NCBI GenBank assembly: GCA_045602545.1
Contig: JAZSBR010000033.1
Span: forward strand, 14,645 to 78,644
Direction: 5' to 3'
DNA from: Alphaproteobacteria bacterium
Lineage (GTDB): Bacteria > Pseudomonadota > Alphaproteobacteria > RF32 > CAG-239
DNA: 64,000 nt
The translations under genes were made by a program, and so were the position numbers. This document shows positions 1,546 to 45,554 of this stretch, one piece after another (the first letter of the stretch is position 1; each line of letters starts with the position of its first letter). A model generated the notes under the pieces. It was not told the origin of the DNA, ran no database searches, and saw nothing but the letters and a program-made list of their open reading frames with translations.

Positions 1546-1848
1546 TTTACAAATAAAAGTTTTTTTGTTATTCTGACAATAGAATGATGTAACATCATTT
1601 CAGAAACTTCGGTTTCGGGGCTTTGAACGGCTCTATATACTCAGAGGTACATAGATACAGTGTCCCTCGGATGCTGTTTTTTTGTATCTGAATATCCCCA
1701 CTTTGGGTGGGGAGCCTGCGTCGTATGTACAAGCATTTTAAATGCTAAAGGATGTAGGAGTCATTGCTGAGTATATGATTGTTCAACTCCCCGCCGCCTC
1801 AAAAAAGGTGGCTTTGTGTTTTTAAAAGTTTTTAGAAAGGACAATGAC
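1546..1848 (+). promoter_or_regulatory. Type A conserved structured 5' leader, copy 1 (candidate promoter TTTACA-N17-TATTCT at 1546-1574, then about 250 nt of structured RNA up to the start codon)
   Basis: About 75% identical to 11771..12077 upstream of a paralogous gene; shared blocks agaaacttcggtttcggggc, cagtgtccctc..gatgctgttttttt, tccccRcWttgGKtgggga hairpin, ttttaaaagttttWagaaaggacaatgaYatg; compensatory changes keep hairpins intact (agcatttt-aaatgct vs ggcttttt-aaagct). Confidence 0.55.
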
Positions 1849-2676
1849 ATGAAAAAAAATGTTTTATTAATGAGTATGATAATACTGTTTAATACAATAT
1901 CCGAATCATCGGCAGATGATATAACACCGACTTCCGGAACTTGTAATACCGACGAAACTTGTTTATGGAGCATAGATTCTGCCGGAACTTTAACCATTTC
2001 CGCCAAAGACGGCGCAAATGATGTTATAATGGATGATTATTATTGCTATGCTAATCCCTGTAACCAATCATCATTAATTTCCCGACCTTGGGAAGCAAGC
2101 TTGCAGCAAATTAAAAGTGTTGTTATTGGTGACAATATTACACATATCGGTGATGATGCCTTCCAGAATGCTTCAAACCTAATATCAATTAGCGGAATGA
2201 AAAATATAAAAACAATCGGAGATGAAGGGGTTTTTGCTTACACCGGTTTAACTGAGATTACAATTCCGGATGGTGTAACATACATTGGTTCAGGTGCATT
2301 TGCCTACACTAAAAAATTGAAAAGTGTAACATTACCTGATACTATCAGCGATATTGGAATAGGAAGCAATGGTCAGAAGCTTTTTAAAGGACAAACTACT
2401 CTTGTTGAAATAAATTGCTTAAACACAAGCGGACAATGCGAAAAATTGCGCGGACTTCTTAAGGATATGATAGGGGATAAAACTTTCAATATCATTTCAC
2501 CTACCTCAAATTGCGAGACTTATAATAGCAAAGGATGCACATCTTGTGAAAAAGAATATTCTCTTGCAGATGGTATGTGCTGGGCAGCTTGGGAAAAAAA
2601 GCATTACACACCGGCTGAGGCTAATCAGTGGCTGAAAGATGACAACAACACCATAACGATTACCTTCAAAAAGTAA
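1849..2676 (+). CDS. secreted BspA-type leucine-rich-repeat protein with conserved C-terminal RYTPAEA...TITFKK domain (family member 1)
   Basis: ATG at 1849 with AAAGGA RBS 8 nt upstream (ORF track start 1816 is probably too early); signal peptide MKKNVLLMSMIILFNTISESSA; LRR_5/BspA-like repeats (ITIPDGVTYIGSGAFAY...VTLPDTISDIG); C-terminus CTSCEKEYSLADGMCWAAWEKKHYTPAEANQWLKDDNNTITITFKK shared with 4 paralogs. Confidence 0.7.
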   Translation: MKKNVLLMSMIILFNTISESSADDITPTSGTCNTDETCLWSIDSAGTLTISAKDGANDVIMDDYYCYANPCNQSSLISRPWEASLQQIKSVVIGDNITHIGDDAFQNASNLISISGMKNIKTIGDEGVFAYTGLTEITIPDGVTYIGSGAFAYTKKLKSVTLPDTISDIGIGSNGQKLFKGQTTLVEINCLNTSGQCEKLRGLLKDMIGDKTFNIISPTSNCETYNSKGCTSCEKEYSLADGMCWAAWEKKHYTPAEANQWLKDDNNTITITFKK

Positions 2677-2679
2677 CCC

Positions 2680-3657
2680 TTACAATTTTTCAATCATCTT
2701 AGCGATTTCGGTGGAAGCATTTAGGGCTTTTTGCGGTTTGAAATCAAAAGCCGATTTATCTTCCAAAGCAATCGCACATTTTGCGTCATAAAGCGAATTC
2801 ACAAAGCGCAAATGCTTTTCGCTTAACCAATCCTTACCGCAGAAAACCCACAAAGGCTTTCCCGGACCCGTTGCCTCGCAACACATTGAAACCGAATCAC
2901 CGGTAACCACCAAATTATCGGCACAAGCCAAATATCCGCCGTAAGGATTTTCGCTTTTATCGCCCCACAAAAATGTGTGTTGTGGAATATCTTTTATTTG
3001 CTCCATAATGATTTTTTGGGCTTCTTCGCCCGTGCGCCTTGAGGTTGTAATCAAAATTGAACCGCCGATTTTTGCTTTCAGCTCTTTTAAGGCTTTGCCG
3101 AGAGCAAGTGCATTTTGCGCCGAAAACGGCTTATTTTTGATTGCCCCGCCGACAATAACCGCCGTCAGCGGACGTGGAAGCGATGAAAAAGTTTCGCTCC
3201 ATTTTGCGCGTTCTTTTTCCAAAAATTCAGCCGTTATCCGGTGTGGACAACCGACAATGTAGTGAATATTCTTCCCCTTGGCTTTTTTTCTGTCATGCTC
3301 CGGCACAATCATCAAATCAAAATCATTTTGCCCCGTTTTTCCGGAATACATAAGCTGAATCAATTTTGTTTTCGGCGACATTTTTTTGATATATCTGGCA
3401 ACCGGAACCGTGCGACGACTGATTGATAAAACATAATCGGGAAACGGCGCTTTTATTTGCTCGGCGTTTTTTTTCGTCAGTCCCAAAAGTGTGCGTCCTC
3501 TGATAAAGTTCGGCAATCCGGCAAATTTATTATATTCCAGATTTTTTTCCTCCACCTCAAACAGGTCTTTATTCAAGGCTCCGATAATTCCCATCGCCTG
3601 CCCCACACTGCCGCGACGATCATCCATTAACGACCAAAAAACTTTTTTCATTCGCAC
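2680..3657 (-). CDS. ELM1/DUF1022-family protein (GT-B-like fold, sometimes annotated nucleoside-diphosphate-sugar epimerase); function unknown
   Basis: 325 aa; ITTSRRT and CPHRI motifs recalled from the ELM1 (PF06258) family; assignment from memory only. Confidence 0.35.
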   Translation of the reverse strand: MRMKKVFWSLMDDRRGSVGQAMGIIGALNKDLFEVEEKNLEYNKFAGLPNFIRGRTLLGLTKKNAEQIKAPFPDYVLSISRRTVPVARYIKKMSPKTKLIQLMYSGKTGQNDFDLMIVPEHDRKKAKGKNIHYIVGCPHRITAEFLEKERAKWSETFSSLPRPLTAVIVGGAIKNKPFSAQNALALGKALKELKAKIGGSILITTSRRTGEEAQKIIMEQIKDIPQHTFLWGDKSENPYGGYLACADNLVVTGDSVSMCCEATGPGKPLWVFCGKDWLSEKHLRFVNSLYDAKCAIALEDKSAFDFKPQKALNASTEIAKMIEKL

Positions 3658-6158: not shown

Positions 6159-7427
6159 TTATTTCTTAAACGTTATCGTCACCTCATTTGTGTTGTCATT
6201 TTTCAACACTTCCGCCGCCTCAGCCGGGGTATAGCGAATGCGGTTACACCATCCGCCCATATCTTTGCAAGATGAGCAACACTTGCGTTTGCTAACATCC
6301 GGCTCACGCACACAGCCAGCTCCGTTCCAAAAGTAATTACCGGAGGTACATTGCTCATAATTTGCCACAACCACATTACCGGCCAATTCCAATGTTTCTC
6401 TTGAATAATCTATGCCGTATTGCTCATATTCGTTAAATAGATTTTTAACGCGAGCGCATGACAGTTCATCTCCCAAACAAATAATCTGCATATTTTGAAT
6501 TGTCTTTTTATTAGTTCCCAAACTTCCAAGCTCTACTTCTTCTAGTGTATCAGGAACTATAATTGAGGGAGAAAAACCACCGGAACCAGCCCTAAAGGCA
6601 AACTCCCCGATTTTTTTCAGCGAATCGGATAGTTTTACGGTTGATATTGCGTTATTCCAAGCAAAGGCTCCTTCATTTATATCAGTTACCGTGTCACTCA
6701 TTTCAACAGCAGTTAACTGGTCACCTGAACGGCAAAAAGCGTATTTTCCGATTGTACTTAAGCCCTCAATTTTCACGGATTTAATTTTTTCTTTATATGC
6801 TTTCCATGGGGCAGTTGTGTATTGTGCATTTGTTTCACTATCTTTGGAGTAAGAATAATTATACATATTTCCACTTCCGGAAACGGATAATTTCCCGCTT
6901 ACTGTATCAAAGCTCCAATCGCAATTGTCACCGCACTTTTCGCAAGCAGTAATGCCATCTTCGCGCAATCCGTTTATGCAACTCACTTTTGTGCCTTCCG
7001 CCCTCGATTCGGCGGTGGTGATGAGCGTGAAAACAAGGGCAAACACCGGAATCGTCATTACGAGGAGCATTCTTTGAATGCGACGTGGTAATCTCATAAA
7101 ACAAGTGACGCTTGTAAATAAGGATTCTTCATTTGCATGAGTACCTTGCTCAGGGAGATAACCACGTCGGACTGAAGTCCTCCTCGTTATGACGTGCCTT
7201 AACAATTTTTCCATCACTTTGGCGGAGTTGCACAGCAACGATGTCAAAGTGCCAACCGCCGAAAGCGGTTTATTCGCACTGCCCTCACTCAACCGCTGAG
7301 TCTGTTTTATATCCGTACATATTGTCGCCGTCCCGCCGACGAGTGTTTCATACGAAACACTCTTGGAAAATTTATAGCAATCCTCGCCTGACTTTTGTGT
7401 TTGCTCTCTATTAAAAATATCATTCAT
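6159..7427 (-). CDS. secreted BspA-type LRR protein with conserved C-terminal domain (family member 2); N-terminal region carries a conserved pre-signal peptide and an in-frame palindromic insert
   Basis: ATG at 7427 with AAGGAAAGG RBS; alternative internal start MTIPVFALVFTLITTAESRA at 7058 (signal peptide shared with the 15165..16463 paralog); LRR_5 repeats; C-terminus CSSCKDMGGWCNRIRYTPAEAAEVLKNDNTNEVTITFKK. Confidence 0.65.
   Translation of the reverse strand: MNDIFNREQTQKSGEDCYKFSKSVSYETLVGGTATICTDIKQTQRLSEGSANKPLSAVGTLTSLLCNSAKVMEKLLRHVITRRTSVRRGYLPEQGTHANEESLFTSVTCFMRLPRRIQRMLLVMTIPVFALVFTLITTAESRAEGTKVSCINGLREDGITACEKCGDNCDWSFDTVSGKLSVSGSGNMYNYSYSKDSETNAQYTTAPWKAYKEKIKSVKIEGLSTIGKYAFCRSGDQLTAVEMSDTVTDINEGAFAWNNAISTVKLSDSLKKIGEFAFRAGSGGFSPSIIVPDTLEEVELGSLGTNKKTIQNMQIICLGDELSCARVKNLFNEYEQYGIDYSRETLELAGNVVVANYEQCTSGNYFWNGAGCVREPDVSKRKCCSSCKDMGGWCNRIRYTPAEAAEVLKNDNTNEVTITFKK
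7053..7194. repeat. palindromic (hairpin) insertion element inside the 5' coding region of the family gene; RPE- or MITE-like
   Basis: Terminal inverted repeats cgtcattacgaggag (7053-7067) and ctcctcgttatgacg (7180-7194); nested inverted repeat gcgacgtggtaatctc / gagataaccacgtcgg; the insert keeps the reading frame open. Confidence 0.5.
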
Positions 7428-7439
7428 TTTAACAGCCCT

Positions 7440-7680
7440 TTCCTTAAAAAAATTAAGCCACTGAGCATAAAAGAAAAACCTCCGAACGGAGGTCGGAAGT
7501 TGACAACTATGATACGATTAATAGTGTAGTATATTTGATAGTACTGTCTTATTCTACTACCTTCCGACCATAAAGTCAGAAGTACACATATCGTATCGAG
7601 GTTGTCACACCTCCGAGCCTTTTATGCTCGTTTAAAAGGTTAACAAAAAAATTTTGCTTTGTAAAGAAAAAAATCTTGCC
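7440..7680 (-). promoter_or_regulatory. Type B conserved structured 5' leader, copy 1 (promoter region plus about 200-nt structured RNA), upstream of the minus-strand family gene
   Basis: Shares with 16470..16745 and 29790..30000 the blocks tctttacaaagcaaaattttttt (promoter), gagcataaaaggctcRgaggt ... cttttatgctc terminal stem, and ggtcggaagg/cttccgacc; several internal stems. Confidence 0.55.
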
Positions 7681-11770: not shown

Positions 11771-12077
11771 TTGACATCTGCTATTTTTTTTGCTAGTGTA
11801 ATATAAGAATGGCGGATACGCCGTTTTAAGAAACTTCGGTTTCGGGGCTGTAGCAGGCTCTTTGTCGATAGAGGTGCATTATTCAGTGTCCCTCTTGGAT
11901 GCTGTTTTTTTGTACCCAAAATCCCCGCATTGGTTGGGGAGATTATAGCGTATGTACAGGCTTTTTTAAAGCTAAAGGCTATAATAGTCATTACTATCGA
12001 CATGATTTGCTAACTCCCCGATCGCCTGCAATACCGGCGGTCTTTGAGTTTTAAAAGTTTTAAGAAAGGACAATGAT
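11771..12077 (+). promoter_or_regulatory. Type A conserved structured 5' leader, copy 2 (candidate promoter TTGACA-N17-TAGTGT at 11771-11799)
   Basis: Paralogous to 1546..1848; see copy 1. Confidence 0.55.
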
Positions 12078-12959
12078 ATGAAAAAGAAATTTAATAATGA
12101 ACACACGCCTAAATCAAGCGAGAATTGCGATAAATATTCCAAGAGTGTTTCGGTGGAAAAATTGTTGCAAATATCGCCTGTATTAAGGTTGGTAAAAGTT
12201 CTTGGTTTAGCGGCGGTTTTATCTTTAAATATAGTGAGCGAATCGCTGGCAGATTGCGAAAGACCAACCAATGGAATATGCAAAACACTTGGAGAAAAAG
12301 GCACTTGCGGCGAGGGTTGTTCTTATACTTATGATTCAGCTACGCAAACTGTTTACATAACCGCTACCGGTGATAATGCAAAAATTGCAGGAGCGGCTTT
12401 TCATAATTATTATTATGAAAATAATAGTATGCCGGCTCAAACTTTTATTATTAATGGTGCTATAAAAATCGGCAGTAATGCATTTAATTCACCCCAAAGA
12501 AAACTTATATCGGGAGCCGGAGGAGCATTGATTTTAACCGGAGTCAATCATGACGCATTCGGAAATGACACAACTTTATCAGGCACCATAATTATTCCGG
12601 AAGGAACAGAATTCGCTCCTCTTGCCTTTTACGGCGTAACTTTGGCAGATAATGCTAAAATATATTGCGGTGTAGAAGATTGCAAACAAAAAATGATTGA
12701 TTCTTGCAATGCTTGGGGACGTAATGAAAACGGAAATGTAACAAGTTGTCTTAATGCCGTGAACAATATGGGCAATAAATTACTTCCATATCCTGAAAAT
12801 TGCCTAAAGGTGGGAGCAATGGGTTGCACAAAGTGCAAAAATTCAAATTTCAAATTAAATGACGGCGAATGTGACAGACTGCGCTACACCCCTGCCGAGG
12901 CGGCTGAGGTTTTGCATAACGACAACACAAATTCGGTGACGATTACTTTCAAAAAATAA
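12078..12959 (+). CDS. secreted BspA-type LRR protein with conserved C-terminal domain (family member 3) and a conserved N-terminal pre-signal extension
   Basis: ATG 12078 with AAAGGA RBS; N-terminus MKKKFNNEHTPKSSENCDKYSKSVSVEKL matches the N-terminus of 6159..7427; signal-like VKVLGLAAVLSLNIVSESLA follows; C-terminus CTKCKNSNFKLNDGECDRLRYTPAEAAEVLHNDNTNSVTITFKK. Confidence 0.7.
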   Translation: MKKKFNNEHTPKSSENCDKYSKSVSVEKLLQISPVLRLVKVLGLAAVLSLNIVSESLADCERPTNGICKTLGEKGTCGEGCSYTYDSATQTVYITATGDNAKIAGAAFHNYYYENNSMPAQTFIINGAIKIGSNAFNSPQRKLISGAGGALILTGVNHDAFGNDTTLSGTIIIPEGTEFAPLAFYGVTLADNAKIYCGVEDCKQKMIDSCNAWGRNENGNVTSCLNAVNNMGNKLLPYPENCLKVGAMGCTKCKNSNFKLNDGECDRLRYTPAEAAEVLHNDNTNSVTITFKK

Positions 12960-15164: not shown

Positions 15165-16463
15165 TTATTTTTTGAAGGTTATCGTCACCTCGTTTGTGTT
15201 GTCATCTTTCAGCACCTCCGCCGCCTCGGCAGGAGTATAAATTTTGCGCAAGCACCAACCGTCATCTTCAAGCTTAAAACTGGCACTTTTGCATTTTGTG
15301 CATTTAAGATTAGCTTCCAGTTTTTCACAACCGTCAGGATAAACACTGAATTTTTTGGAAAGACTATTAAGACTCTGAAAGCAGGCTTCATTATTACTAC
15401 TTTCTTCGCAACCTTTCTTTGCCATATCATAACATGCTTTGGCACCGGAGGCACAATAGATTTTGCCGGTTATATTACTTACATTTACAGCAAAGTATTT
15501 AATACTATCAACAGAATCGGGAATAATAATATTTCCATCTATATTTGAACTTCCCAAAACCCAACCAGGCATCGTTTGCATATTTTCCGATATTATCACA
15601 TCTCCTTTGATATTTGCCCTTTCTAAAGAAGTAACCAATGGATTATTTAAATAAACATCACCATTTAAGGTTACACGATTGTTGCCATAAGTAGAATAAC
15701 TTCCAATATTATTAAATACAAATTTCCCGTTTGCGTTCAAAATTTGCGCTCCGGAATTGGCAAACGCATAATTTCCGATATTTTCAAAATCGTTATCTAA
15801 GACAATGTTTTGCAAGGGAATGACCTTATTTTGGGCGTCTTTAACCTGATTATCAGCGTAATAATATGGTGAAAATGCGCCATCGCGAATCGAGGCAGAC
15901 TTGGATATATCAGTTTTATATATATGCAAAACCTGTTGTCCGTTTTCATTAATAACTCTGTATGAACAATTGTCTCCGCAGGAATTGTTACCATTTGCAT
16001 CGGATAGTTTTTCAATGCAAGTGACTGTATAACCATGTCCTTCCTTGCAAACGGGTGTTTCTTCATCTGCTCGCGATTCGCCGGTGGTGATGAGGGTGAA
16101 AATGAGGGCAAGCGCCGGAATCGTCATTCTGAGTTGAGTTTTAGCGAAACGAAGAATCCACGGATTTAATATGAAGCGGCGTTTGTGTGCCTTACGGCAC
16201 GACGCCGGAGCGGAGATTCCTTGAGCGCCTGACGCACCGCGCAGGCGCAGGAATGACAGTACCTTTTCTGTCATCTTGAGCCTCGAGACGTTAGGCGAGC
16301 GGGCGTAAAGATCTCTTTTTGCAGAAACGCGGTATGCTTTTTGCTCCATATTTTTAACACAATCTCTACACTTGCAACATGAGATCTTGACGGGGATTTC
16401 GCTTGCGCTCAACCCCTCAAGATGACGGCAGATTATTTTTTCATTATTCTTAATTTCAAACAT
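15165..16463 (-). CDS. secreted BspA-type LRR protein with conserved C-terminal domain (family member 4); 5' region carries an in-frame GC-rich palindromic insert
   Basis: ATG 16463 with AAAGGA RBS; alternative internal start MTIPALALIFTLITTGESRA at 16127; LRR_5 repeats; C-terminus CTKCKSASFKLEDDGWCLRKIYTPAEAAEVLKDDNTNEVTITFKK. Confidence 0.65.
   Translation of the reverse strand: MFEIKNNEKIICRHLEGLSASEIPVKISCCKCRDCVKNMEQKAYRVSAKRDLYARSPNVSRLKMTEKVLSFLRLRGASGAQGISAPASCRKAHKRRFILNPWILRFAKTQLRMTIPALALIFTLITTGESRADEETPVCKEGHGYTVTCIEKLSDANGNNSCGDNCSYRVINENGQQVLHIYKTDISKSASIRDGAFSPYYYADNQVKDAQNKVIPLQNIVLDNDFENIGNYAFANSGAQILNANGKFVFNNIGSYSTYGNNRVTLNGDVYLNNPLVTSLERANIKGDVIISENMQTMPGWVLGSSNIDGNIIIPDSVDSIKYFAVNVSNITGKIYCASGAKACYDMAKKGCEESSNNEACFQSLNSLSKKFSVYPDGCEKLEANLKCTKCKSASFKLEDDGWCLRKIYTPAEAAEVLKDDNTNEVTITFKK
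16121..16437. repeat. GC-rich palindromic insertion element (RPE- or MITE-like) within the 5' coding region of the family gene
   Basis: Local GC far above flanks (gccttacggcacgacgccggagcggag...gcgcaggcgcagg); imperfect terminal inverted repeats cgtcattctgag (16122-) and ctcaagatgacgg (-16437); internal hairpins such as tgacagtaccttttctgtca; same relative position and TIR core (cgtcatt) as the 7053..7194 element. Confidence 0.45.
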
Positions 16464-16469: not shown

Positions 16470-16745
16470 ATTCCTTTTCTTAAAAAATTATACCACTTAA
16501 GCATAAAAGAAAATCGCCCAAAAAGGCGACTGGAAGCAGAAAACTATACAGATTAGATAGTGTGATTTATTCGCAAACCGAAGGGTTTCTTATTTCATCA
16601 CCTTCCAGCCATACGAATATGACTGAAAATAAAACTATCCCTACAAAAGGACAAATCTGTCTGAGGTTTTCTGACCTCCGAGCCTTTTATGCTCAATTAA
16701 AATGCTAGCAAAAAAATTTTGCTTTGTAAAGAGAAAAGTTAGAAA
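16470..16745 (-). promoter_or_regulatory. Type B conserved structured 5' leader, copy 2, with sigma70-like promoter TTTACA-N17-TAGCAT (complement 16702..16730)
   Basis: Paralogous to 7440..7680 and 29790..30000; terminal stem agcataaaag...cttttatgct. Confidence 0.55.
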
Positions 16746-29789: not shown

Positions 29790-30071
29790 TATTATTTTTT
29801 CTTTACAACACAAAATTTTTCTGCTAGCATTTCAGGTGAGCATAAAAGGCTCAGAGGTCTGATAGCCTCTAACACATTAGTCCTTTTCAGAGGATGGTTT
29901 TAATTTCAGTCATACGTTAAATATGACTGGAAGGTGGTGAAATAAGAAGGGGTAACCTTTACGAATAAATCACACTATCTAATGTGTTATAGTTATCAGC
30001 TTCCAGTCGCCTTTTTTGAGGGCGATTTTTCTTTTATGCGCGGTTTAATCTTTTTAAGAAAGGAAAAAATT
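29790..30071 (+). promoter_or_regulatory. Type B conserved structured 5' leader, copy 3, with sigma70-like promoter TTTACA-N17-TAGCAT (29802..29830)
   Basis: Reverse complement of the 16470..16745 element in the same orientation relative to its downstream gene; gagcataaaaggctcagaggt...ctggaaggtggtgaaataagaa...cttccagtcgcctttttt. Confidence 0.55.
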
Positions 30072-30737
30072 ATGAGTAATCAAAATGGTCGCAGTATGAT
30101 TGAAATGTTGGGCGTACTGGCAATAATCGGTGTTTTGAGCGTTGGCGGAATCGCCGGCTATTCCAAGGCGATGATGAAGTTTAAGATAAACAAAACTATT
30201 GAACAAATAACTACGATAATGACAAATTTTAAGACTCTAACTGTGGCTCAAACAAATAAAGAATATGAAGCAATAAATGCAAATCCTGACCTATTTTTTC
30301 CTGAAGACATGCTGTTTTGTGAATACGATGACGAAGGAAATATTGATTACTGCGACTGTTGCAAGAGTAATTGGGGAGAAATTGACTTTGGTGGATGTAA
30401 TAAAGGAAACTGTGATTATGAAGGAATTTATTTAGGATTTGATAATTTACCAAAAGAAGTTTGTATAGCTTTGGCAACTTATGATTGGAGTGTTATAGAA
30501 GGCATTATTGATATTTCTGCTTCACCTGATTCTTATTGGGCTTTTGGTTATGAAGGATGCAGTGGTTCAAAACTGGGTGAAAATGATGAAAATACACCTG
30601 TTAATTATGATTTCAGAGCTGCTGTTGCATGCAAAAAAGGTAGTGTCGTTTCTTTACCAATGCCGGTAAATATTGCTGCCGAAGCTTGCAACTGCGTAAA
30701 TAACAACAGTTGCGGATTTAATGTTGATTTTAAATGA
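30072..30737 (+). CDS. type IV prepilin-like protein (class III signal peptide) with Cys-rich C-terminal domain
   Basis: ATG 30072 with AAGGA RBS; MSNQNGRSMIEMLGVLAIIGVLSVGGIAGY resembles the prepilin G/xxxE N-methylation motif plus hydrophobic helix; more than 10 Cys in the mature part. Confidence 0.5.
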   Translation: MSNQNGRSMIEMLGVLAIIGVLSVGGIAGYSKAMMKFKINKTIEQITTIMTNFKTLTVAQTNKEYEAINANPDLFFPEDMLFCEYDDEGNIDYCDCCKSNWGEIDFGGCNKGNCDYEGIYLGFDNLPKEVCIALATYDWSVIEGIIDISASPDSYWAFGYEGCSGSKLGENDENTPVNYDFRAAVACKKGSVVSLPMPVNIAAEACNCVNNNSCGFNVDFK

Positions 30738-37491: not shown

Positions 37492-37736
37492 TTTTATCTC
37501 CATCTATTCAAATTGTGAACACACCATACACCATTTTTTACCAAATTGCAAGACTTTTTTGTCAAAAAAATGAAAAAAAGTGCATTTTTTTCTACACTAA
37601 CTTATTTTTATATCCAAAATCGACAAATTACACATCTTTTGCGCAGTATAAAAGGCAAAAAAACTTGCTTATTTTAACACTTTATATTATAGATAGGCAA
37701 AACTTTGTTTTATAAACCAGTGTTCGGACGAAAAAT

Positions 37737-38975: not shown

Positions 38976-39863
38976 ATGAAAAATTTAAATAAAAACTTTT
39001 TTGCCCTTTCTATGGTCCTATGCCTTGGCATATCAACTCAAGCATGGGGAGGGGTAGATGATAATTCAGGAATACCTGATAACTGTGGTACCGGTTGCAC
39101 TTGGACATACAATAGCACCACCAAGACCTTAACAATTACCGGTTCCGGCAACACTATACCTGATGTTAATACATGGAAAAGCACAGCTATAAAGAAAGCT
39201 GAAAATTTGGTCATCACCGGTGTTAGTGAATTAAATAAAAATTCTGCCGGAGCTTTTGCTGATTTTAAATCTTTAAAAAATATTTCTGCTGATAATAATC
39301 TAAGGGTAATAGGTGAGGATGCGTTTAAAAATTGTAATGCCTTACAAAGTTTTGATATACCGTCATCTGTAACAACAATAGGAACAAACGCTTTTAGGAG
39401 TGCTTTTGCCACTTCTTACACAGATGAAAATGGTAATACGGTTGGAACAAGTTTAGTTATACCTGATAGTGTTACCAGTATCGGCAAACAGGCTTTTGAC
39501 GGTAACAAACTTTCAACGATAATTATACCTGATGATGTTACTCTAGGAACTAAGGCTCTTAATGGTTCTACTGCTGAAATCATCTGTCAGGGCAACTTAA
39601 CGCTTTGTGAACAAAAAGCCACAGCTGCAAAAGCTCCTGCCGGCTCCACAAAAGCTGCCAGTGAATTACAATGCTATGGCGATAAGCACTATTGGAACGG
39701 CACAAACTGCGTAAATGAGCCGAACAAGGCCAACCGCACCTGCTCTTCAAGCTATAAAATGAATGACGGGCTTTGTGACCGCGTACGTTACACTCCGGCT
39801 GAAGCCGCTAAAATGGTGACTAACGATAATAACAATTCCGTTACCATAACATTTAAAAAATAG
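38976..39863 (+). CDS. secreted BspA-type LRR protein with conserved C-terminal domain (family member 5; no conserved leader module)
   Basis: ATG 38976 with AAAGGA RBS 9 nt upstream; signal peptide MKNLNKNFFALSMVLCLGISTQAWG; LRR_5 repeats (DIPSSVTTIGTNAF...IPDSVTSIGKQAF...IPDDVTLGTKAL); C-terminus CSSSYKMNDGLCDRVRYTPAEAAKMVTNDNNNSVTITFKK. Confidence 0.7.
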   Translation: MKNLNKNFFALSMVLCLGISTQAWGGVDDNSGIPDNCGTGCTWTYNSTTKTLTITGSGNTIPDVNTWKSTAIKKAENLVITGVSELNKNSAGAFADFKSLKNISADNNLRVIGEDAFKNCNALQSFDIPSSVTTIGTNAFRSAFATSYTDENGNTVGTSLVIPDSVTSIGKQAFDGNKLSTIIIPDDVTLGTKALNGSTAEIICQGNLTLCEQKATAAKAPAGSTKAASELQCYGDKHYWNGTNCVNEPNKANRTCSSSYKMNDGLCDRVRYTPAEAAKMVTNDNNNSVTITFKK

Positions 39864-39912: not shown

Positions 39913-40380
39913 ATGACATCAAGTTTAGCGCAATTTAAGCAACAATTAAAGCCTTATAAAGCCATAATCGGATTTGATTATGGCTCAAAACGTTTGGGCA
40001 TAGCCGTATCTGATTTGTTGCTGACCGTGGCGACGCCTTATGCTATCTGGAGGCGCTCCGATTTTGCAAAAGATTTGGCTTATATTCAAAAAGTTATCGC
40101 TGAAAAAGAAGTCGGCGCCATTGTTTTCGGCCTGCCCTTGCAGATGAACGGTGAAGAAGGAGATATCGCCAAAGAAGTGCGCGCCTTTGCCGATAAACTA
40201 GCCGAGCATATTGATTTGCCGATGTTCTTTTGGGACGAGCGCCTATCATCATCCGCCATGGAAAATTTCTTAATCAAAGAAGTTGATATGTCACGTGCCA
40301 AGCGCAAAAAGGTTTTAGACGCCTCTGCCGCCTCATACATTTTACAAGGTGTTTTGGACGCACTGCAATATATTTCTTAA
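39913..40380 (+). CDS. ruvX: Holliday-junction-resolvase-like RuvX/YqgF
   Basis: 155 aa; IIGFDYGSKRLGIAVSD N-terminal motif of the YqgF family. Confidence 0.8.
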   Translation: MTSSLAQFKQQLKPYKAIIGFDYGSKRLGIAVSDLLLTVATPYAIWRRSDFAKDLAYIQKVIAEKEVGAIVFGLPLQMNGEEGDIAKEVRAFADKLAEHIDLPMFFWDERLSSSAMENFLIKEVDMSRAKRKKVLDASAASYILQGVLDALQYIS

Positions 40381-41351
40381 GTAACTTCCACAATCGCACG
40401 AGTGTTGCCGACACGGGCAATTTGCACCACATGAAGCTTGCGTTGCATTTCATCAAGTGTTTGTTCAACATTGACGGCACCAGCGGTTGAAGCCATAATA
40501 CGTTTAATAAATTGCAAATATGCCTCTTGTGAGCTTTCCGCGTGGATGGTGGCAAAGCAGTTGTCGTGACCTGAACCCATAAGTTGCCAAATACCGCTGG
40601 CATTACTGGTTGAAATCTCACCGCCGATAATGGCATCGGGAGTAAAACGTACCACCAAGTCAATAATGTTTGAATAGTCAATGGAGTTGGTTTGGTCGGT
40701 ACGTGACATAACAAGATGCACTCTGTTCGGGTGCGGAACAATAAGTTCTCGCGTATCTTCAACCGTTATAATACGTTTATGAATATCCAAAATCTTCAAT
40801 AAGTTGTTCAAAAAGGTTGTTTTACCGGTTGAGGTTGCACCGCTGACCAAAATATGTTCACCGCGTTTAATATATAAAAGCAAGCGCTCATAAGCATCAT
40901 CAGGAACCTTAATATCTTTCAGAGGGTTTAGTTTTTTCAAAGCCTGACCTTGGCGCATTCCGTAGTCTTCCAAACCGAAAGCAACATCGTCGGCATGAAG
41001 ACGCATGGTTAAGGCCACACCACCTGTCAAATCGTCATTATCATACATAATGTTTCGCCCGCAGATGGCAGAAAAACGGTGCCCGCCCGGAATAGTGGCA
41101 TAAACAAGAGGCGAACCCTGCAACGGGTCAAAACTTATCTCATAGGTATTGGCAATGATATAAAGAAGGTCAATCAAATATTCTTTGGTAAGCTTTTCAT
41201 CTTTATACATAACCCACGGATATGCCCTTTTTCCGCGCATTCTGAGCCATATCTGACCGGAGCGATTAACGGCGATTTCCTCCAAGTTATCTTGGTTATA
41301 CCAATAAGCCAGAGGTCTTAAAACAGATTCCAATACCGAAAAATCACTCAT
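40377..41351 (-). CDS. virB11: type IV secretion ATPase VirB11
   Basis: 324 aa; Walker A GATSTGKTTFLN; VirB11/GspE-family architecture; last gene of the virB-like cluster. Confidence 0.85.
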   Translation of the reverse strand: MSDFSVLESVLRPLAYWYNQDNLEEIAVNRSGQIWLRMRGKRAYPWVMYKDEKLTKEYLIDLLYIIANTYEISFDPLQGSPLVYATIPGGHRFSAICGRNIMYDNDDLTGGVALTMRLHADDVAFGLEDYGMRQGQALKKLNPLKDIKVPDDAYERLLLYIKRGEHILVSGATSTGKTTFLNNLLKILDIHKRIITVEDTRELIVPHPNRVHLVMSRTDQTNSIDYSNIIDLVVRFTPDAIIGGEISTSNASGIWQLMGSGHDNCFATIHAESSQEAYLQFIKRIMASTAGAVNVEQTLDEMQRKLHVVQIARVGNTRAIVEVT

Positions 41352-41361
41352 TTTTCCCTCC

Positions 41362-44300
41362 TTACATCAAATCCGGAACAGCCCCGACATCGCCCTGCGG
41401 AGATGATTGCTGTGTTGTTGCCGGAACATTTGATTGACGACGTTTACGCGTGTTTGCATTTGTCGGGTTGCTGGTTGTGAGCGAAGCCGGAGCAACCTCT
41501 TCTTCATATTCTTCGTCATAATCAACCTTATTTCCGCCACCTGATGAACCTTCACTTATAGTACCGGCGCGCGCATCAGTATTTTCTGAAGTCAAGCCTT
41601 TTTCCATGCTGTCAACTTCTCTTGCCTGACGCTCCTGATTACGCTTTTCGCTGTTAAGCCACAAATCCTCGTTCGGAAAAATGATGATTCTGGTACCGGC
41701 CGGAACATAAGTAACCGAACGAATTTTAACCTTGTCCTCCATCATATCATTAATCATTTTATCCATTTGTGCCAAAAATTCCGTACGAGCCTGATCAGCT
41801 GCACGGGCCTTATCATCTTCCGTTGTAGTACCGTTATTATTGGTTTTAGACCCACCGCTTGCTGCCGTAACATAAGAAATTGCACTAGATAATACGGTAG
41901 CGGCAAGAGGCTCGGCATATTTTTTCAAGAGTTGCTGATCCAAATAACCGATAGCGCCTGCACGACCTTGAGCATCGGCTGTTTGGGCCGAATTAAGCAA
42001 GAATTGCGCTCCGTCCGGACGAATAATTCTTTTCCATTCAATACCGATTTTAACGGCTCCGCCCGTATTTCCGCCGGTATTTGCTCCGCCACCGCTGACA
42101 GCACCGATAGCACGACTGCCGGCCGGAATAATTATGTTTCTGCCGTCTTCGGCATAAATATTTCGCTCAACAATTGCCGTTACCGGAATATTATCGCTAA
42201 ATCCTTCCGAGGCATAAACCGAACGAGCCAAAACTGCCGGAATCGGCTTGTCTTCCAAAATCATCTGGCTCATATCAACACGCCAGCTTGAAATATTTTT
42301 TTCAACTCCCGGCCAACCGTCTTCTTCATATCCGGTAAAGTTAGAAACTTCAAAGTTTGAAGAAATCGGCTTTACGGATATGTTTTTACGGCGCATCTGT
42401 TGCAATTCCGAAAGCGCTCTGGCACGATTCGGATCATATCTTTCGCCTTGACCGAAGCCACCGCCCGGTCCCAAGTTTGTAGGTTGCGAGCCTATACCAT
42501 AAGCGTTTCCGTTACCGAAAGCACCGGCCGGCACAAACATATTTTCAGCCGATGTGCGCTTAATTTCCTCAATACCGATAGGATTATAATCCATATCAAC
42601 AATAATTCCGTCCGATGTTCTGAAACCGATTTGCGTACCGTTTGCATCGCGCACCGTGTTATCATCATAAATATCACCGATAACATCTCCGTCCGGACTT
42701 AAAGCGATACCGATAATTTTTTTGCTCAAATCTTTTATTACGGACGAATCTTTACCTTTTGATTTTGAGGTTGTACGTTCATCTTGCACACCGACTTTTT
42801 TATTATCGGCCCAGCTGTCATCTCCGCGCAGATTTTTCAGACCTTGCCCTTGATAATATTGCAAAGGATAGGCGTTGGCAATTATATCTCCGTTTGAATT
42901 TTTGATTGCGCCGTTATCAGTGATATAGCCGATATTTTGATTTTCATAATCAATCACATTACCGTCAAAACCGAGTTCACCTAAGGCATTGTTACTGCTA
43001 TCTCTGATGGTATAATCACGATTTGCTCTGGCAACAACTTTGTTTTCACGATCTATCACAAAACCATGATCCAAAAATCCGAGCCTGCTTCCGACACTGC
43101 TCAAAACAGTTCCGTCTTTTGTAAAATAGCCGTATGTAATAAAGTTTTCATCATAGGCATAAAAATCATACATTGCATAACCGACAACTTCGCCCTTATT
43201 GACAACCGAGCCGTCAAAAGCAATTTGACCCACTGTTTTTCCGGCATCATCTACAACCGCACCGGAATTTTTCACCAATCCCAAAAACTTGTTTTGTTCA
43301 TCAAAAGCAACCTTATAGCGCATAACATTACCGAGAGTTTTTTTGGATTTTGAAACCACATTTCCATTCGGTTGCATATAACCGATAATCGCATTTTTGG
43401 CATTAACCGCGCTACCGTCTGCCTGAATTTGACCGATTATGTTGTTTTCAAAATCAATCACGGAATCTTGCGAAATAACACCATATTTCCACTTATTGGC
43501 ATCATCTTTGATAATTCCTTGACGATTGATACAACCGATATTGTTGCCGATATAATCCAAACCGCTTCCGTTGTTGACTACGCCTGCAAAGTTTCCGTTA
43601 AAATCAATCAAACCTTTTTGAAAAATACCATATCCGAGATAGCTTCCGACATCGGAAATTGCCTGTCCGTTCGGCAAAACTCTTCCGATAATAACTTCTC
43701 TTGAATTTACCACATCGCCATGACCGTTCATAACACCAAGATTATCGCATTTATCGTTTTGAACACTGATAAACGGCACTGCTTTTCCCACAACATTTGA
43801 AGAATTGTCCAAAACATAGTTGCCATAAACCACAAAACCTCTTGTATTTGAGTTTAAATCAGCAACTTTTCCGGCATTATTGACATATCCGAGCAAATCA
43901 CCGCTGTTGCTGACTGCAACCATGGTTTTTCCGGCATAGCCGGCAAGTGGCATTACATTGTTTTCAGATTGTCCGGCAGTAGCAACCACATAATTTTCCG
44001 GAGTTATTTTATAGGCAATATCCCCGTCTTTGTTCATTATAGTATTGTTATTCATCAAATAACCCAAACTTTCACCTTGCTGATTATATGAAAAGGCAAA
44101 ATTGAGCTTATCGGCAACAAAACCTTCTTTTCCGATTGCCATTCCGTTCGGCGAAACAGTAACATTATCAGACCCGCGATAAAGCGTTCCGTTCGGGGTA
44201 ATATTTGAATAAAAATTTCCTTCCAAGCTATACATCGGAGCCGTTTCAAAACCGGAACCGATAACTTTTTTCTCCGAGTTCAATAAATATCCGAACGGAG

Positions 44301-45552
44301 AAACCGTATTTTTATCATTTGCCAAACCCACTGTTCCGGATGTTTCAACCGTGCCGAGAGGCTTATTATAGGTATTGACTGCCAACATATTTTTGTTGAT
44401 ACCGCCAATCATCAGACCGTTTGTATCAAAGGCAAAATTATTAATCGTGCGCCCGATGGTATTTCCTCCGGTTGCCACCAGCGAGCCGTTATTCATACCC
44501 TCACCCTTTAATGAGCCAAGCACATCAAACACCGGACCGGTTTGAATTGCTTGTCCGATTAACTCGCCTTTATCATTATAAACATAGTTTTTTGCACCGA
44601 TATGCCCGATTGTTTCCGTGCCTTTAATTACATTTCCGTCCGGCACGACACGACCGATATATTTACCGTTCAAGTCAGAAACGGCGGAAGCAATATCCAA
44701 AGTATATCCTATAATTTTTCCGTTTTCATCAACAATCGTTCCATCACTGCGATAATGTCCGATTTCCTCGTTTGACGCATTTAATACCGTTCCGTTATAA
44801 CTGATAATACCTAAATATTTTCCCTTAACATCAAAAGCATATCCCGACATAACAACTCGGCCGATAATTTTTCCGCCTTCATCATAAACATATCCGTTGG
44901 CATGTACATTACCGACCTTTTTGGCTTCAAAGTCAATAACTTCACCTGAAGGAGAGATGCTACCCAAAAACTTTCCGTCGTTTGAAACAACCATTTTAGA
45001 CGAGATTAAACGACCATCAATAACATAACTGTCCGCCGTTTTACGATAAGCATAACCGCCGGCAGAAATAAAACCGAGTTCTTGTCCGTCCATATCGGTA
45101 TATGTTCCGGCACCGGTCATGCGGCCGACAACATTGCCGTCATCAGAATAAATTATTCCCGGAAACAAAATAGCGCCGATAATCTCGTCTTTATTATTGA
45201 TAACCAAACCATTCGGCAAACCGCGCCCCAAATCCTTGCCGGCAAAACTTCTCAAAACACCGTCGCTGTGCATTTTTCCCAAGAGCTTATTATCATAGCC
45301 GATAACAATACCTTGAGGCAAGACACCGCCCAAAATTTTTCCTTCATCATTAACAACCAAACTGTCCGCAGTGATATAACCGATATTTTCGCCATCGGAA
45401 TTGATAACCATACCGGAAGAAATCACCTGTCCGAGAACTTTTCCGTTAAAGTCAACCGTCGTAATTTCCGCCAAAGCAGATTTTACATAAGAAGTAAAAA
45501 ATGCCAAAGCAACTACGGACAGCTTAAAAATATGGTTACTGCTTTTGAACAT
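41362..45552 (-). CDS. virB10: giant VirB10: Sec signal + about 1000 aa of about 20-residue Gly/Asp beta-repeats + VirB10/TrbI C-terminal domain
   Basis: 1396 aa; signal peptide MFKSSNHIFKLSVVALAFFTSYVKSALA; repeats of the type G-x-[VI]-x-D-x-[ND]-G-x-[IL]-[IL]-G; C-terminal region ...PVTAIVERNIYAEDGRNIIIPAGSRAIGAVSG...IGIEWKRIIRPDGAQFLL...AGAIGYLDQQLL... reads as a VirB10/TrbI (PF03743-like) domain; Pro/Ser-rich acidic C-terminal tail. Confidence 0.7.
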   Translation of the reverse strand: MFKSSNHIFKLSVVALAFFTSYVKSALAEITTVDFNGKVLGQVISSGMVINSDGENIGYITADSLVVNDEGKILGGVLPQGIVIGYDNKLLGKMHSDGVLRSFAGKDLGRGLPNGLVINNKDEIIGAILFPGIIYSDDGNVVGRMTGAGTYTDMDGQELGFISAGGYAYRKTADSYVIDGRLISSKMVVSNDGKFLGSISPSGEVIDFEAKKVGNVHANGYVYDEGGKIIGRVVMSGYAFDVKGKYLGIISYNGTVLNASNEEIGHYRSDGTIVDENGKIIGYTLDIASAVSDLNGKYIGRVVPDGNVIKGTETIGHIGAKNYVYNDKGELIGQAIQTGPVFDVLGSLKGEGMNNGSLVATGGNTIGRTINNFAFDTNGLMIGGINKNMLAVNTYNKPLGTVETSGTVGLANDKNTVSPFGYLLNSEKKVIGSGFETAPMYSLEGNFYSNITPNGTLYRGSDNVTVSPNGMAIGKEGFVADKLNFAFSYNQQGESLGYLMNNNTIMNKDGDIAYKITPENYVVATAGQSENNVMPLAGYAGKTMVAVSNSGDLLGYVNNAGKVADLNSNTRGFVVYGNYVLDNSSNVVGKAVPFISVQNDKCDNLGVMNGHGDVVNSREVIIGRVLPNGQAISDVGSYLGYGIFQKGLIDFNGNFAGVVNNGSGLDYIGNNIGCINRQGIIKDDANKWKYGVISQDSVIDFENNIIGQIQADGSAVNAKNAIIGYMQPNGNVVSKSKKTLGNVMRYKVAFDEQNKFLGLVKNSGAVVDDAGKTVGQIAFDGSVVNKGEVVGYAMYDFYAYDENFITYGYFTKDGTVLSSVGSRLGFLDHGFVIDRENKVVARANRDYTIRDSSNNALGELGFDGNVIDYENQNIGYITDNGAIKNSNGDIIANAYPLQYYQGQGLKNLRGDDSWADNKKVGVQDERTTSKSKGKDSSVIKDLSKKIIGIALSPDGDVIGDIYDDNTVRDANGTQIGFRTSDGIIVDMDYNPIGIEEIKRTSAENMFVPAGAFGNGNAYGIGSQPTNLGPGGGFGQGERYDPNRARALSELQQMRRKNISVKPISSNFEVSNFTGYEEDGWPGVEKNISSWRVDMSQMILEDKPIPAVLARSVYASEGFSDNIPVTAIVERNIYAEDGRNIIIPAGSRAIGAVSGGGANTGGNTGGAVKIGIEWKRIIRPDGAQFLLNSAQTADAQGRAGAIGYLDQQLLKKYAEPLAATVLSSAISYVTAASGGSKTNNNGTTTEDDKARAADQARTEFLAQMDKMINDMMEDKVKIRSVTYVPAGTRIIIFPNEDLWLNSEKRNQERQAREVDSMEKGLTSENTDARAGTISEGSSGGGNKVDYDEEYEEEVAPASLTTSNPTNANTRKRRQSNVPATTQQSSPQGDVGAVPDLM

Positions 45553-45554
45553 CT

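Follow-up and report, generated by a model that had tools for sequence, protein, structure and literature searches.

What keeps the extreme C-terminus of five secreted proteins nearly constant when their bodies differ so widely? This question is raised by the 64-kb stretch of alphaproteobacterial DNA analysed here, which we refer to as the window.

Five window genes end in a common C-terminal module

A six-frame scan returned exactly five copies of YTPAEA...[TI]ITFKK in the 64 kb, each directly 5' of a stop codon, and exactly five window ORFs ending in ...[YW]TPAEA...TITFKK-stop. Numbered along the window, the modules occupy 2536..2673 (+) in paralog 1 (gene 1849..2676; ...CEKEYSLADGMCWAAWEKKHYTPAEANQWLKDDNNTITITFKK), 6162..6299 (-) in paralog 2 (gene 6159..7427; ...CCSSCKDMGGWCNRIRYTPAEAAEVLKNDNTNEVTITFKK), 12819..12956 (+) in paralog 3 (gene 12078..12959; ...CTKCKNSNFKLNDGECDRLRYTPAEAAEVLHNDNTNSVTITFKK), 15168..15305 (-) in paralog 4 (gene 15165..16463; KCTKCKSASFKLEDDGWCLRKIYTPAEAAEVLKDDNTNEVTITFKK-stop, the last 46 codons of the gene) and 39723..39860 (+) in paralog 5 (gene 38976..39863; ...CSSSYKMNDGLCDRVRYTPAEAAKMVTNDNNNSVTITFKK). 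The module of paralog 1 belongs to a subtype B, which is also present in two relatives (L002 and L003). The scan thus bears out the five ORFs with a common module described in an earlier, sequence-only reading of this DNA, but the regular expression proposed there is not literally matched by all five. Paralog 4 has R-K-I-Y in place of R-[IL]-[RH]-Y, paralog 5 lacks the C-x-x-C, and paralog 1 has four residues inserted and ends in a tail that is shorter by one.

In the alignment of the five modules, two Cys, a G, YTPAEA, DN, N and TITFKK are invariant. Pairwise identity among the paralogs is 20-33% in the bodies, 49-75% over the last 45 residues and 65-96% over the last 24, in agreement with the previous statement that the bodies are far more divergent than the module.

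All five proteins carry a signal-peptide-like segment. In paralog 1 (+), the signal peptide (MKKNVLLMSMIILFNTISESSA/DD) is followed by a BspA-type LRR body, a Cys-rich stalk and the module; paralog 5 (+) combines a signal peptide (..LCLGISTQAWG/G) with a clear LRR_5 body, a Cys-rich stalk and the module. The segment lies behind an extension in the other three: 123 open codons in paralog 2 (-; MTIPVFALVFTLITTAESRA/EG, then an LRR_5 body, a Cys-rich stalk and the module), 34 codons in paralog 3 (+; ..VLGLAAVLSLNIVSESLA/DCE, then a divergent LRR-like body and the module) and 112 open codons in paralog 4 (-; MTIPALALIFTLITTGESRA/DE, then a divergent LRR body and the module). The mature parts contain 9-13 Cys each. 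Lipoprotein anchoring was considered and rejected, since the cleavage region ...SES.A/[DE]C, judged by eye, is no lipobox.

The proteins had been called LRR paralogs, which the Pfam LRR_5 threshold bears out for three of them. Against the gathering cut-off of Pfam PF13306 (LRR_5; 27.7 bits), paralogs 1, 2 and 5 score 64.9, 40.7 and 113.7 bits (best E 7e-33), whereas paralog 4 stays below threshold (20.9 bits) and paralog 3 gives no LRR_5 match in the Pfam scan. Both of the latter are nevertheless homologous: their bodies match each other (E 5e-10), and that of paralog 4 weakly matches paralog 5 (E 1e-3). The body fold matches BspA-type LRR structures (Foldseek E 6e-6 to 1e-2). By sequence and fold, the bodies therefore belong with BspA-type LRR proteins (PF13306) such as Bacteroides BACOVA_04585, T. 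pallidum TpLRR and pneumococcal PcpA. Known members of this class are anchored through T9SS CTDs, choline-binding repeats, lipidation or transmembrane anchors. None of the LRR_5, NCBIfam or solved-structure matches found here reaches over the tail.

The module is under selection and outside described families

Over the tail, all paralog pairs have pS values of 0.56-1.05, near or at saturation, and pN values of 0.02-0.17; different paralogs use different codons at the invariant residues. Synonymous sites are saturated while the amino acids are kept, so the tail is under strong purifying selection at the protein level and its similarity does not stem from recent copying.

Neither Pfam nor NCBIfam placed anything on the module when the five proteins, 31 modules and 139 relatives were scanned. 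The NCBIfam CTERM models gave no match to it at E <= 1, nor, at the same level and over these three sets, did Por_Secre_tail and TIGR04183/TIGR04131. Profile searching of PDB sequences gave nothing better than E 0.077, and in the literature searched the module's motif strings turned up only in an unrelated paper on laminin. In Foldseek, the module model came no closer than E 1.7 to any fold (R-spondin furin repeat, EGF), a resemblance confined to the disulfide hairpins. The earlier impression that the motif lies outside any described family is upheld, the module being uncovered in Pfam, NCBIfam, PDB sequences and the searched literature.

Two further candidates were set aside. An LRR C-terminal cap (LRRCT-like) was rejected because a variable Cys-rich stalk separates the LRRs from the module and because the module also occurs without LRRs and in minimal proteins. 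An N-glycosylation sequon in DDNTN was rejected because neither D/E-x-N-x-S/T nor N-x-S/T fits the conserved positions.

A family of proteins with the same stop-anchored tail

An exhaustive HMM search with the module gave 332 cluster representatives (clusters at 50% identity). Family size is taken from this search; a word-index protein search, which returned 27 fragments, badly understates it. All 150 matches listed from the HMM search end at most three residues from the C-terminus, and in 158 of 160 proteins the distance from the core Y/W to the stop is 23-25 residues. Among these 160, 70 end in TITFKK, 31 in TITFRK and 25 in TFKVNR, and almost every one has a basic last residue (terminal dipeptides: KK 90, RK 36, NR 25, KM 5). 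Conservation across the family spans about the last 40 residues, with the consensus ...C-N-R-I-R-Y-TPAEAA-x-VL-x-DDNTN-x-VTITFKK-stop. T-P-A-E-A is conserved at 99-100%, C(-5) at 100% and R(-3) at 92%; C(-5), R(-3), [YW]TPAEAA, VL, DDN, N and VTITFKK carry near-maximal information.

Signal peptides in the relatives were called by a hydrophobicity heuristic, which found 73 at the N-terminus and 29 more after an extension among 127 long members; the other 25 look 5'-truncated. The family is thus overwhelmingly signal-peptide-bearing by this heuristic, as the sequence-only reading had supposed from the five window proteins.

The bodies vary. LRR_5 bodies are present in 72 of 139 relatives. The module also follows RHS, MORN and furin-like bodies, and in a 3.4-kb contig of 50% GC labelled Selenomonas it follows a body without LRRs. 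Some complete proteins of about 100 aa consist solely of the module and, ahead of it, a signal peptide and a short Cys-rich stretch. Outside the last 60 residues, 66% of member pairs have no BLASTP match at E <= 1e-3, and all 123 bodies form one single-linkage cluster. The genome matches listed were to rumen MAGs on short contigs, two of them alphaproteobacterial and one the contig labelled Selenomonas. The best reading is that the family belongs to uncultured gut and rumen Alphaproteobacteria and is rare elsewhere. The module was absent from the JGI metagenome contigs scanned. No match was found in viral contigs, and a phage origin of the module was rejected on this basis.

Anatomy and predicted structure of the tail

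The module begins with a disulfide-type beta-hairpin, C-x2-[FY]-[KR]-x3-G-x-C, followed by [ND]-R-x-R. A short helix, [YW]-TPAEAA-x-VL, leads into an Asp/Asn-rich turn (DDNTN), and the protein ends with an amphipathic strand and basic residues, VTITF[KR]K-COOH. In the AF2 full-length model of paralog 5 (pLDDT 89 overall, 95-98 in the body), confidence drops to 75, 66 and 64 through the last 30 residues; the final 15 are coil and the tail is left unpacked. A module-only model, predicted as a hairpin, a helix and a coil, behaved likewise. Such a tail, conserved yet modelled as unpacked, is what a segment that folds upon binding a partner typically looks like.

The tail contains no transmembrane segment according to its hydropathy: in the last 45 aa of 171 proteins, the maximum 15-residue Kyte-Doolittle mean has a median of -0.07 and reaches 0.90 at most, against 2.28 for N-terminal signal regions.

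A candidate docking or sorting tag

We tentatively favour, at somewhat less than even chances, the reading of the module as a portable C-terminal docking or sorting tag of about 40 residues on Sec-exported, Cys-rich, mostly BspA-type LRR proteins of the envelope or surface. This reading draws on the strict terminal position, the multiplicity, the purifying selection, the export signals, the portability, the unpacked tail and the attributes of small C-terminal sorting domains set out by Haft (bioRxiv 10.1101/2023.06.07.544157). The module shows five of these seven attributes. Its core keeps a fixed distance from the stop and the listed HMM matches are all C-terminal; five genes carry it within one 64-kb window; T-P-A-E-A, C(-5) and R(-3) provide a signature motif; the 73 plus 29 signal peptides among 127 members, called heuristically, provide the export signal; and the basic cluster of two to five residues is present in its minimal, two-residue form, Lys-rich rather than Arg-rich. 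The sixth attribute, member pairs without homology outside the tag, may apply in part. The seventh, a long hydrophobic transmembrane segment, is missing. The sorting or anchoring role proposed for the tail from its sequence alone is therefore plausible as to position, multiplicity, motif, basic end and signal peptide, and falls short in the membrane segment.

If the docking or sorting reading holds, the proteins would first be exported by Sec and form their disulfides in the periplasm. The free tail would then be bound by a common, hypothetical partner. Its V-T-I-T-F strand would probably dock by strand addition, and the basic carboxy-terminus would act as a determinant. This partner, which could be a scaffold in the outer membrane or at the surface, or else part of a transport system, would retain or route every family member alike while the LRR bodies diversify. 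No partner, cognate machinery or processing enzyme for the tail was identified.

Two features of the family sit less easily with such a tag. Since all bodies fall in one single-linkage cluster, what looks like a tag passed among unrelated cargo may instead be the constrained end of a single old, divergent family. In addition, a minimal protein without cargo is odd for a pure secretion signal.

Comparison with known C-terminal signals places the module near several classes. Like LPXTG/sortase, PEP-CTERM/exosortase, GlyGly-CTERM/rhombosortase and MYXO-CTERM/myxosortase domains, it stands at the extreme C-terminus, occurs in several copies per genome and has a motif in which three or more residues are invariant; it further resembles these tripartite domains in its basic end and in the N-terminal signal peptides, and perhaps in the many member pairs that are dissimilar elsewhere. 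However, the tripartite domains place a hydrophobic transmembrane segment between motif and basic end, which the module lacks, and their basic cluster is Arg-rich where the module has Lys-Lys or Arg-Lys. No candidate intramembrane protease for the module was identified.

The closest functional analogy is the T9SS CTD, as on Tannerella BspA. This domain too is C-terminal without being a membrane segment, and the Sec-exported proteins that carry it differ greatly in their bodies, BspA-type LRRs included. The T9SS CTD is recognised in the periplasm and serves both outer-membrane transit and surface attachment. It is, however, a beta-sandwich of 70-100 residues restricted to Bacteroidota, whereas the module has about 40 residues (hairpin, helix, strand) and no sequence match to it; no T9SS genes were seen within the 64-kb window. 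With the beta-signal recognised by BAM, the module shares a terminal amphipathic strand with alternating hydrophobics and a conserved Phe (V-T-I-T-F), but here two basic residues come after the Phe, there is no beta-barrel ahead of the strand and the body is a soluble LRR solenoid. The Giardia variant-specific surface proteins, CXXC-rich and ending in CRGKA, resemble the family in their Cys-rich, variable multigene make-up, conserved signal peptide and invariant basic extreme C-terminus, and the Cys-rich hairpins of the module weakly resemble furin-like or EGF repeats. These proteins differ in being eukaryotic and in having a transmembrane helix ahead of CRGKA, and no homology to the module was detected.

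A bolder version of the sorting reading would make the tail a new class of diderm C-terminal sorting or secretion signal, a helix-turn-strand of about 25 residues that lacks a membrane anchor and leaves its basic carboxy-terminus free. It would be read in the periplasm by a machine not yet linked to such tags (the VirD4-less T4SS of the window, working in a Ptl-like way, or a pilus or outer-membrane scaffold). Gut and rumen Alphaproteobacteria would thereby display a diversifying set of LRR adhesins, part of which would be expressed under the control of a new structured leader RNA of about 220 nt. We regard this combination as unlikely.

Conserved C-terminal tags have repeatedly led to envelope sorting machines (sortase, exosortase, rhombosortase, T9SS and myxosortase). 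The tail has the statistical hallmarks of this class, minus the membrane segment, and is carried by the main candidate adhesins of an uncultured gut and rumen alphaproteobacterial lineage that is functionally almost uncharted. If a partner exists, the tag would be a handle for finding it by phylogenetic profiling; it also offers a ready-made metagenomic marker for the surface proteome of the lineage.

Alternative explanations for the conserved tail

Instead of being sorted by any machinery, the proteins might use the tail as an intrinsic assembly element, a small C-terminal oligomerisation or nucleation motif or a cap stabilising the Cys-rich stalk. We give this explanation roughly one chance in four. 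In size and position the tail compares with the fibritin foldon of 27 residues, and the low AF2 confidence of the tail in monomer models would be equally expected for a motif that folds only in the oligomer. A structural need shared by bodies of one homologous cluster could explain the conservation, and minimal proteins of stalk and tail would be understandable as subunits of a joint assembly. One of the non-significant fold matches is to a foldon fusion (rank 43, E 8.7). However, the tail has no significant sequence or fold match to oligomerisation domains and lacks the core Trp of the foldon, and a strictly basic carboxy-terminus at an exact distance from the stop speaks more for a terminus that is recognised than for one packed into a core.

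It is less probable still that the tail is the business end of these proteins and the LRR body has another role. The tail would then be a small ligand-binding peptide, for instance one that offers its free C-terminal Lys/Arg to a receptor on a host, a protist or a bacterium, or else a DDNxN loop that binds Ca2+. The near-invariance of the basic carboxy-terminus (KK, RK, NR) and the conserved Asp/Asn-rich turn are in line with this proposal, as are stand-alone minimal proteins carrying their own conserved regulated leader. The occurrence of the module in a compositionally different organism also argues against a need for lineage-specific machinery. On the other hand, the tail matches no known binding domain, LRRs are the canonical binding module of such proteins, and partner-exposed binding surfaces usually diversify in families of this kind, whereas the tail is the least variable part.

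The window also holds a chromosomal T4SS locus (40377..63409, -) with VirB11, a TrbI/VirB10 with a beta-flower extension, a beta-flower/RHS protein, CagX/VirB9, two VirB8, unknown ORFs and VirB4. The sequence-only reading had linked the tail to this "adjacent virB locus". The locus is real and paralog 5 adjoins it, about 0.5 kb from virB11, but 24-38 kb separate the locus from the other four genes, whose neighbours are lpx, comEC, dnaJ-like and further housekeeping genes. With only one of five genes adjoining the locus, the T4SS link of the module is weak. Classical T4SS substrates are not Sec-exported. VirB/D4 substrates with positively charged tails, BID domains or XVIPCD are comparable to the module in the C-terminal location and net positive end of their signals, and a T4SS is present in the window; they are, however, cytoplasmic proteins recognised by VirD4, without Sec signal peptides or disulfides, and have no sequence similarity to the module. 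The five window proteins do not fit this description, with five signal-peptide-like segments, 9-13 mature Cys and no VirD4 seen in the 64 kb.

A Ptl-like route would come closer: the tail could be a recognition tag by which Sec-delivered periplasmic proteins leave through the neighbouring VirB-type T4SS, as pertussis toxin does and with no need for VirD4. We consider this improbable, and more so than a role in ligand binding. The substrate that Ptl exports is periplasmic, Sec-dependent and disulfide-bonded, the window locus encodes VirB4, VirB8, VirB9, VirB10 and VirB11 with no VirD4 seen next to virB11, and the tail end is basic, as in many T4SS signals. Against it, Ptl substrates are not known to carry a linear C-terminal tag, VirD4 may lie beyond the window, four paralogs are remote from the locus, and a tail-bearing protein occurs on the Selenomonas-labelled contig, where no T4SS gene is found among the few ORFs of its 3.4 kb.

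Finally, recent duplication or 3'-end gene conversion of an unconstrained peptide is a barely credible source of the similarity; recent duplication without constraint is the outcome that the earlier reading had named as fatal to its proposal. In its favour, the 3' ends of paralogs 2 and 4 are 79% identical in DNA across 97 nt, and the two genes have 5' elements in common. The saturated pS and low pN of all pairs, the different codons at invariant residues and the same tail retained in the 332 clusters, from many samples, stand against it.

Upstream elements of the paralogs

The upstream regions fall into two classes. A structured 5' leader RNA of about 220 nt with strong covariation (class 1) is shared by two window genes and two metagenomic relatives. 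It lies at 1601..1816 (+) ahead of paralog 1, where a terminator-like hairpin forms its end 32 nt 5' of the ATG, and at 11828..12045 (+) upstream of paralog 3. At gathering thresholds, no Rfam family was found in the window, and the leader gave a chance-level match only. This leader is a separate candidate for a new class of cis-regulatory RNA controlling surface-protein genes.

A conserved class-2 element is located at 7598..7672 (-) upstream of paralog 2, where it comprises a sigma-70-like TTTACA-17-TAGCAT and the start of the 5' UTR, and at 16618..16737 (-) upstream of paralog 4. The same element, at 29795..29914 (+), precedes a type IV pilin-like gene (29982..30737), which suggests that this gene is co-regulated with paralogs 2 and 4.

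A C-terminal tail shared by five genes and maintained by purifying selection

All five translated ORFs (1849..2676 (+), 6159..7427 (-), 12078..12959 (+), 15165..16463 (-), and 38976..39863 (+), named here by first coordinate) carry ...[YW]TPAEA...[TI]ITFKK immediately 5' of the stop codon. Scanning the window from end to end in all six frames turned up exactly these five copies and none besides. In gene 15165, the module occupies the final 46 codons (15168-15305, (-)). Among the paralogs, identity is 20–33% over the mature bodies, 49–75% over the last 45 residues, and 65–96% over the last 24, so the shared tail described in the sequence-only reading is indeed far better kept than the bodies. 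In the alignment, conservation is complete at two Cys, one Gly, YTPAEA, DN, N, and TITFKK. The regular expression given in that reading captures a real motif but is drawn a little too tightly: R-K-I-Y is found in 15165, 38976 has no C-x-x-C, and the tail of 1849 carries an insertion and is one residue shorter than the others. The description of the genes as LRR paralogs was strictly demonstrated for three bodies (Pfam LRR_5, 64.9, 40.7, and 113.7 bits), whereas 12078 and 15165 are tied in by homology, being related to each other (E 5e-10), with a weak match of 15165 to 38976 via the BspA repeat unit.

Nei-Gojobori counts over the 24-codon tail, for all equal-length paralog pairs, gave a pS of 0.56–1.05, at or near saturation, versus a pN of 0.02–0.17. 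As the codons of the invariant residues also differ from paralog to paralog, it is purifying selection at the peptide level that maintains the tail. Unconstrained recent copying, the objection raised beforehand against the motif, is an explanation to which we give almost no credence, since saturated synonymous sites beside low pN, together with the differing codons, rule out recent duplication or gene conversion of the tails.

The module matches no described domain

In the five proteins, Pfam and NCBIfam matches all end well upstream of the module. When 31 isolated modules were compared with NCBIfam, no model matched at E <= 1, the CTERM and T9SS models of the library included, and in 139 relatives no Pfam family extends across the module. 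Against all PDB sequences, a profile search gave E 0.077 at best, and a full-text literature search with motif strings returned nothing relevant. As first supposed, the motif belongs to no family in these collections; the module is an undescribed, real, and strongly constrained C-terminal element.

Family size and distribution

A word-indexed protein search yielded 27 unnamed metagenomic fragments. An exhaustive search of 1.84 billion cluster representatives with an HMM of the module, as had been proposed, yielded 332 proteins at E <= 1e-3, mostly of 200–600 aa; 236 of them reach E <= 1e-10. Among the matches listed, the alignment always stops at most 3 residues from the C-terminus. Of 160 sequences anchored on the core, 158 have the core Y/W 23–25 residues before the stop; the sequences end in TITFKK (70), TITFRK (31), TFKVNR (25), or minor variants, and the last residue is basic in nearly all. 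Per-position information sets the module length at about 40 residues, with the consensus C-x2-[FY]-[KR]-x3-G-x-C-[ND]-R-x-R-[YW]-TPAEAA-x-VL-x-DDN-x-N-x-VTITF[KR]K. Three subtypes were distinguished: A, the majority; B, with KK[HR]YTPAEANQW, to which the tail of 1849 belongs; and C, ending in TFKVNR.

Within 185,579 species-representative genomes, three module loci were found, every one from rumen MAGs. They are labelled "Alphaproteobacteria bacterium", "uncultured Rhodospirillaceae bacterium" (a 401-aa protein with signal peptide, LRRs, Cys repeats, and tail), and, on a 3.4-kb contig, Selenomonas ruminantium. One module locus is labelled gut metagenome, and neither viral contigs nor JGI metagenome contigs gave a module match. 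This family of exported LRR proteins is sizeable and ecologically narrow. The window itself has the look of an alphaproteobacterial chromosome (LpxA, LpxI, LpxB, ComEC, an ELM1-like protein, RNase E, FtsH, PBP1a, and others) and a GC content of 41%. GC is 50% in the Selenomonas-labelled contig versus 37–43% in all other loci, so that the module is not strictly confined to one lineage. On that contig, the gene at 2029-3084 joins a subtype-B tail (...KKHYTPAEANQWLIDDNNNTITIIFKK) to a non-LRR body, through either cross-phylum module transfer or a binning artefact.

Conserved ends and variable bodies

A hydrophobicity heuristic placed an N-terminal signal peptide on 73 of the 127 long relatives and one behind a 27–198-residue extension in 29. 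The remaining 25 appear 5'-truncated. A signal-peptide c-region ending in ...SES[RWQLS]A recurs throughout the family, and the signal peptides of the window's other exported proteins are unrelated to it. With this c-region and the conserved tail, both protein ends are family-specific and the middle is variable. LRR_5 was detected in 72 of 139 bodies, and LRR_8, RHS, furin-like, or MORN repeats in a few; the remainder have no recognised domain. Minimal complete genes, with a 365-nt intergenic region upstream, encode about 100 aa: the signal peptide is followed by a short Cys-rich stretch and then the module. Although 66% of member pairs have no BLASTP similarity outside the last 60 residues, all bodies fall into one single-linkage cluster, so that portability of the module between bodies is suggested, short of proof.

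Three window genes have extensions ahead of a signal-peptide-like segment: 6159 (7064-7427 (-), 123 codons), 15165 (16128-16463 (-), 112 codons), and 12078 (12078-12179 (+), 34 codons). In the first two, the gene frame alone is open, with 0 stops versus 4–10 per other frame (chance probability 0.0004 for 6159 and 0.0024 for 15165). The extensions are composed of palindromic units, including a 130-nt hairpin (z = -4.8) with the AUG of MTIP... within its 3' arm, and 29 metagenomic relatives carry recurrent modular counterparts of their blocks. One possible reading of the extensions is an extended signal-peptide region; another is a leader that is structured and contains an internal start.

In L004, a locus outside the window, a module-family gene is split at 7440-7470 by a poly-A run one base short (AAGAAAAAATAG). 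An extra A restores ...DCKKKIADSCNDD...; an error in the assembly would account for the split, as would slipped-strand phase variation. Another relative (L006/L007) is broken into three ORFs, in identical fashion in two independent samples.

Structure models and putative function of the tail

The suggested structure prediction of the module, from a 31-sequence alignment, gave two disulfide-type hairpins, a short helix across TPAEAAE, and an unpacked tail (pLDDT 75), with no significant structural neighbour (the best, a furin-like or EGF repeat, at E 1.7). Mature 38976, modelled from a 107-sequence alignment (pLDDT 89, pTM 0.84), has an LRR body at pLDDT 95–98 that resembles BspA-type "cell surface" LRR structures (B. 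ovatus 4fs7, T. pallidum TpLRR 6mlx). Over its last three 10-residue blocks pLDDT declines to 75, 66, and 64, and secondary structure is lacking throughout the final 15 residues. Because this end is unpacked and of low confidence, the most conserved stretch is predicted not to dock on its own protein; the models fit a segment that would fold on a partner or within an oligomer.

A docking or sorting role, still putative, is the most likely function of the module. We tentatively favor a portable tag to which a shared envelope partner would bind following export by Sec: the proteins would cross the inner membrane by Sec, disulfides would form in the exported proteins, and the shared partner would bind the tail. 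Small C-terminal sorting domains were characterised by Haft (bioRxiv 10.1101/2023.06.07.544157) through seven attributes. The module has five of them (terminal position, multiplicity per genome, an invariant signature motif, a basic end, and N-terminal signal peptides). For a sixth, pairs without other homology, the picture is mixed: 66% of pairs lack such similarity, as noted above, but all bodies join in a single cluster. The transmembrane segment is clearly absent, which places the module outside the tripartite class. The initial idea of a sorting or anchoring signal is plausible. A C-terminal domain that lacks a membrane segment and is recognised in the periplasm, such as that of T9SS, offers the nearest functional parallel; however, the module resembles the T9SS domain in neither sequence nor size, and no T9SS gene was seen in the window.

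An intrinsic oligomerisation or stabilising motif, with which an end folding within an oligomer would also agree, is a rather unlikely alternative to the docking tag, and a ligand-binding end is improbable.

The T4SS locus

An unusual chromosomal virB-type T4SS locus lies at 40377-63409 (-), with VirB11, TrbI/VirB10, CagX/VirB9, two VirB8, and VirB4. TrbI/VirB10 (1396 aa) has seven beta-flower repeats and adjoins a 1263-aa beta-flower/RHS-repeat protein. The locus also holds a 1380-aa ORF without domain match and several unknown exported proteins; four small exported proteins are Lys/Glu-rich. No VirD4 was seen beside virB11 or elsewhere in the window, which makes a Ptl-like periplasmic route conceivable. 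That the tail is a recognition tag for this machine, as had been proposed from the neighboring locus, we judge more doubtful still than ligand binding: one of the five genes, 38976, adjoins the locus, with ruvX between, and nothing positive ties the tail to the machine.

The window also contains an 854-aa ORF at 34939-37503 (-) without Pfam match, in which 24-nt tandem units (35792-35947) encode a Gly/Asn/Ala-rich repeat.

Elements upstream of the module genes

About 290 nt 5' of 1849, 12078, and the minimal gut-metagenome gene (L008) share 85% mean column identity, and RNAalifold folded the three sequences with 89 pairs. In this alignment, 95.5% of cells pair versus 40–47% with partners slid, and 23 pairs are compensated versus 0–3 in slid controls, a number attained by 0 of 500 shuffles. 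With a covariance model of these three, a fourth, independent copy was located at L004 6648-6865 (165 bits). Once it was added, 98.2% of cells paired, and compensation was present in 24 of 70 pairs, versus 0–4 in slid controls. The covarying, structured 5' leader RNA of about 220 nt lies at 1601-1816 and 11828-12045 (both (+)) in the window and at 269-490 in L008, each copy directly upstream of a module gene; the four come from at least three samples. G·U pairs show that the sense strand is the one that folds. Inside the leader are two terminator-like hairpins with U-runs, and a comparison with Rfam gave no match. We regard the leader as a candidate for a new cis-regulatory RNA, attenuator or riboswitch-like, that would act on surface-protein genes.

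A distinct conserved element of 75–120 nt, with a sigma-70-like promoter (TTTACA-17-TAGCAT) and small hairpins, precedes 6159 (7598-7672 (-)), 15165 (16618-16737 (-)), and a type IV pilin-like gene (29795-29914 (+)). It suggests that surface structures may be co-regulated. The latter gene (29982-30737 (+)) encodes a Cys-rich type IV pilin/pseudopilin-like protein, without Pfam match, that has a prepilin-type N-terminus (...GRSMIEMLGVLAIIGVLS...) and ends in ...FNVDFK.
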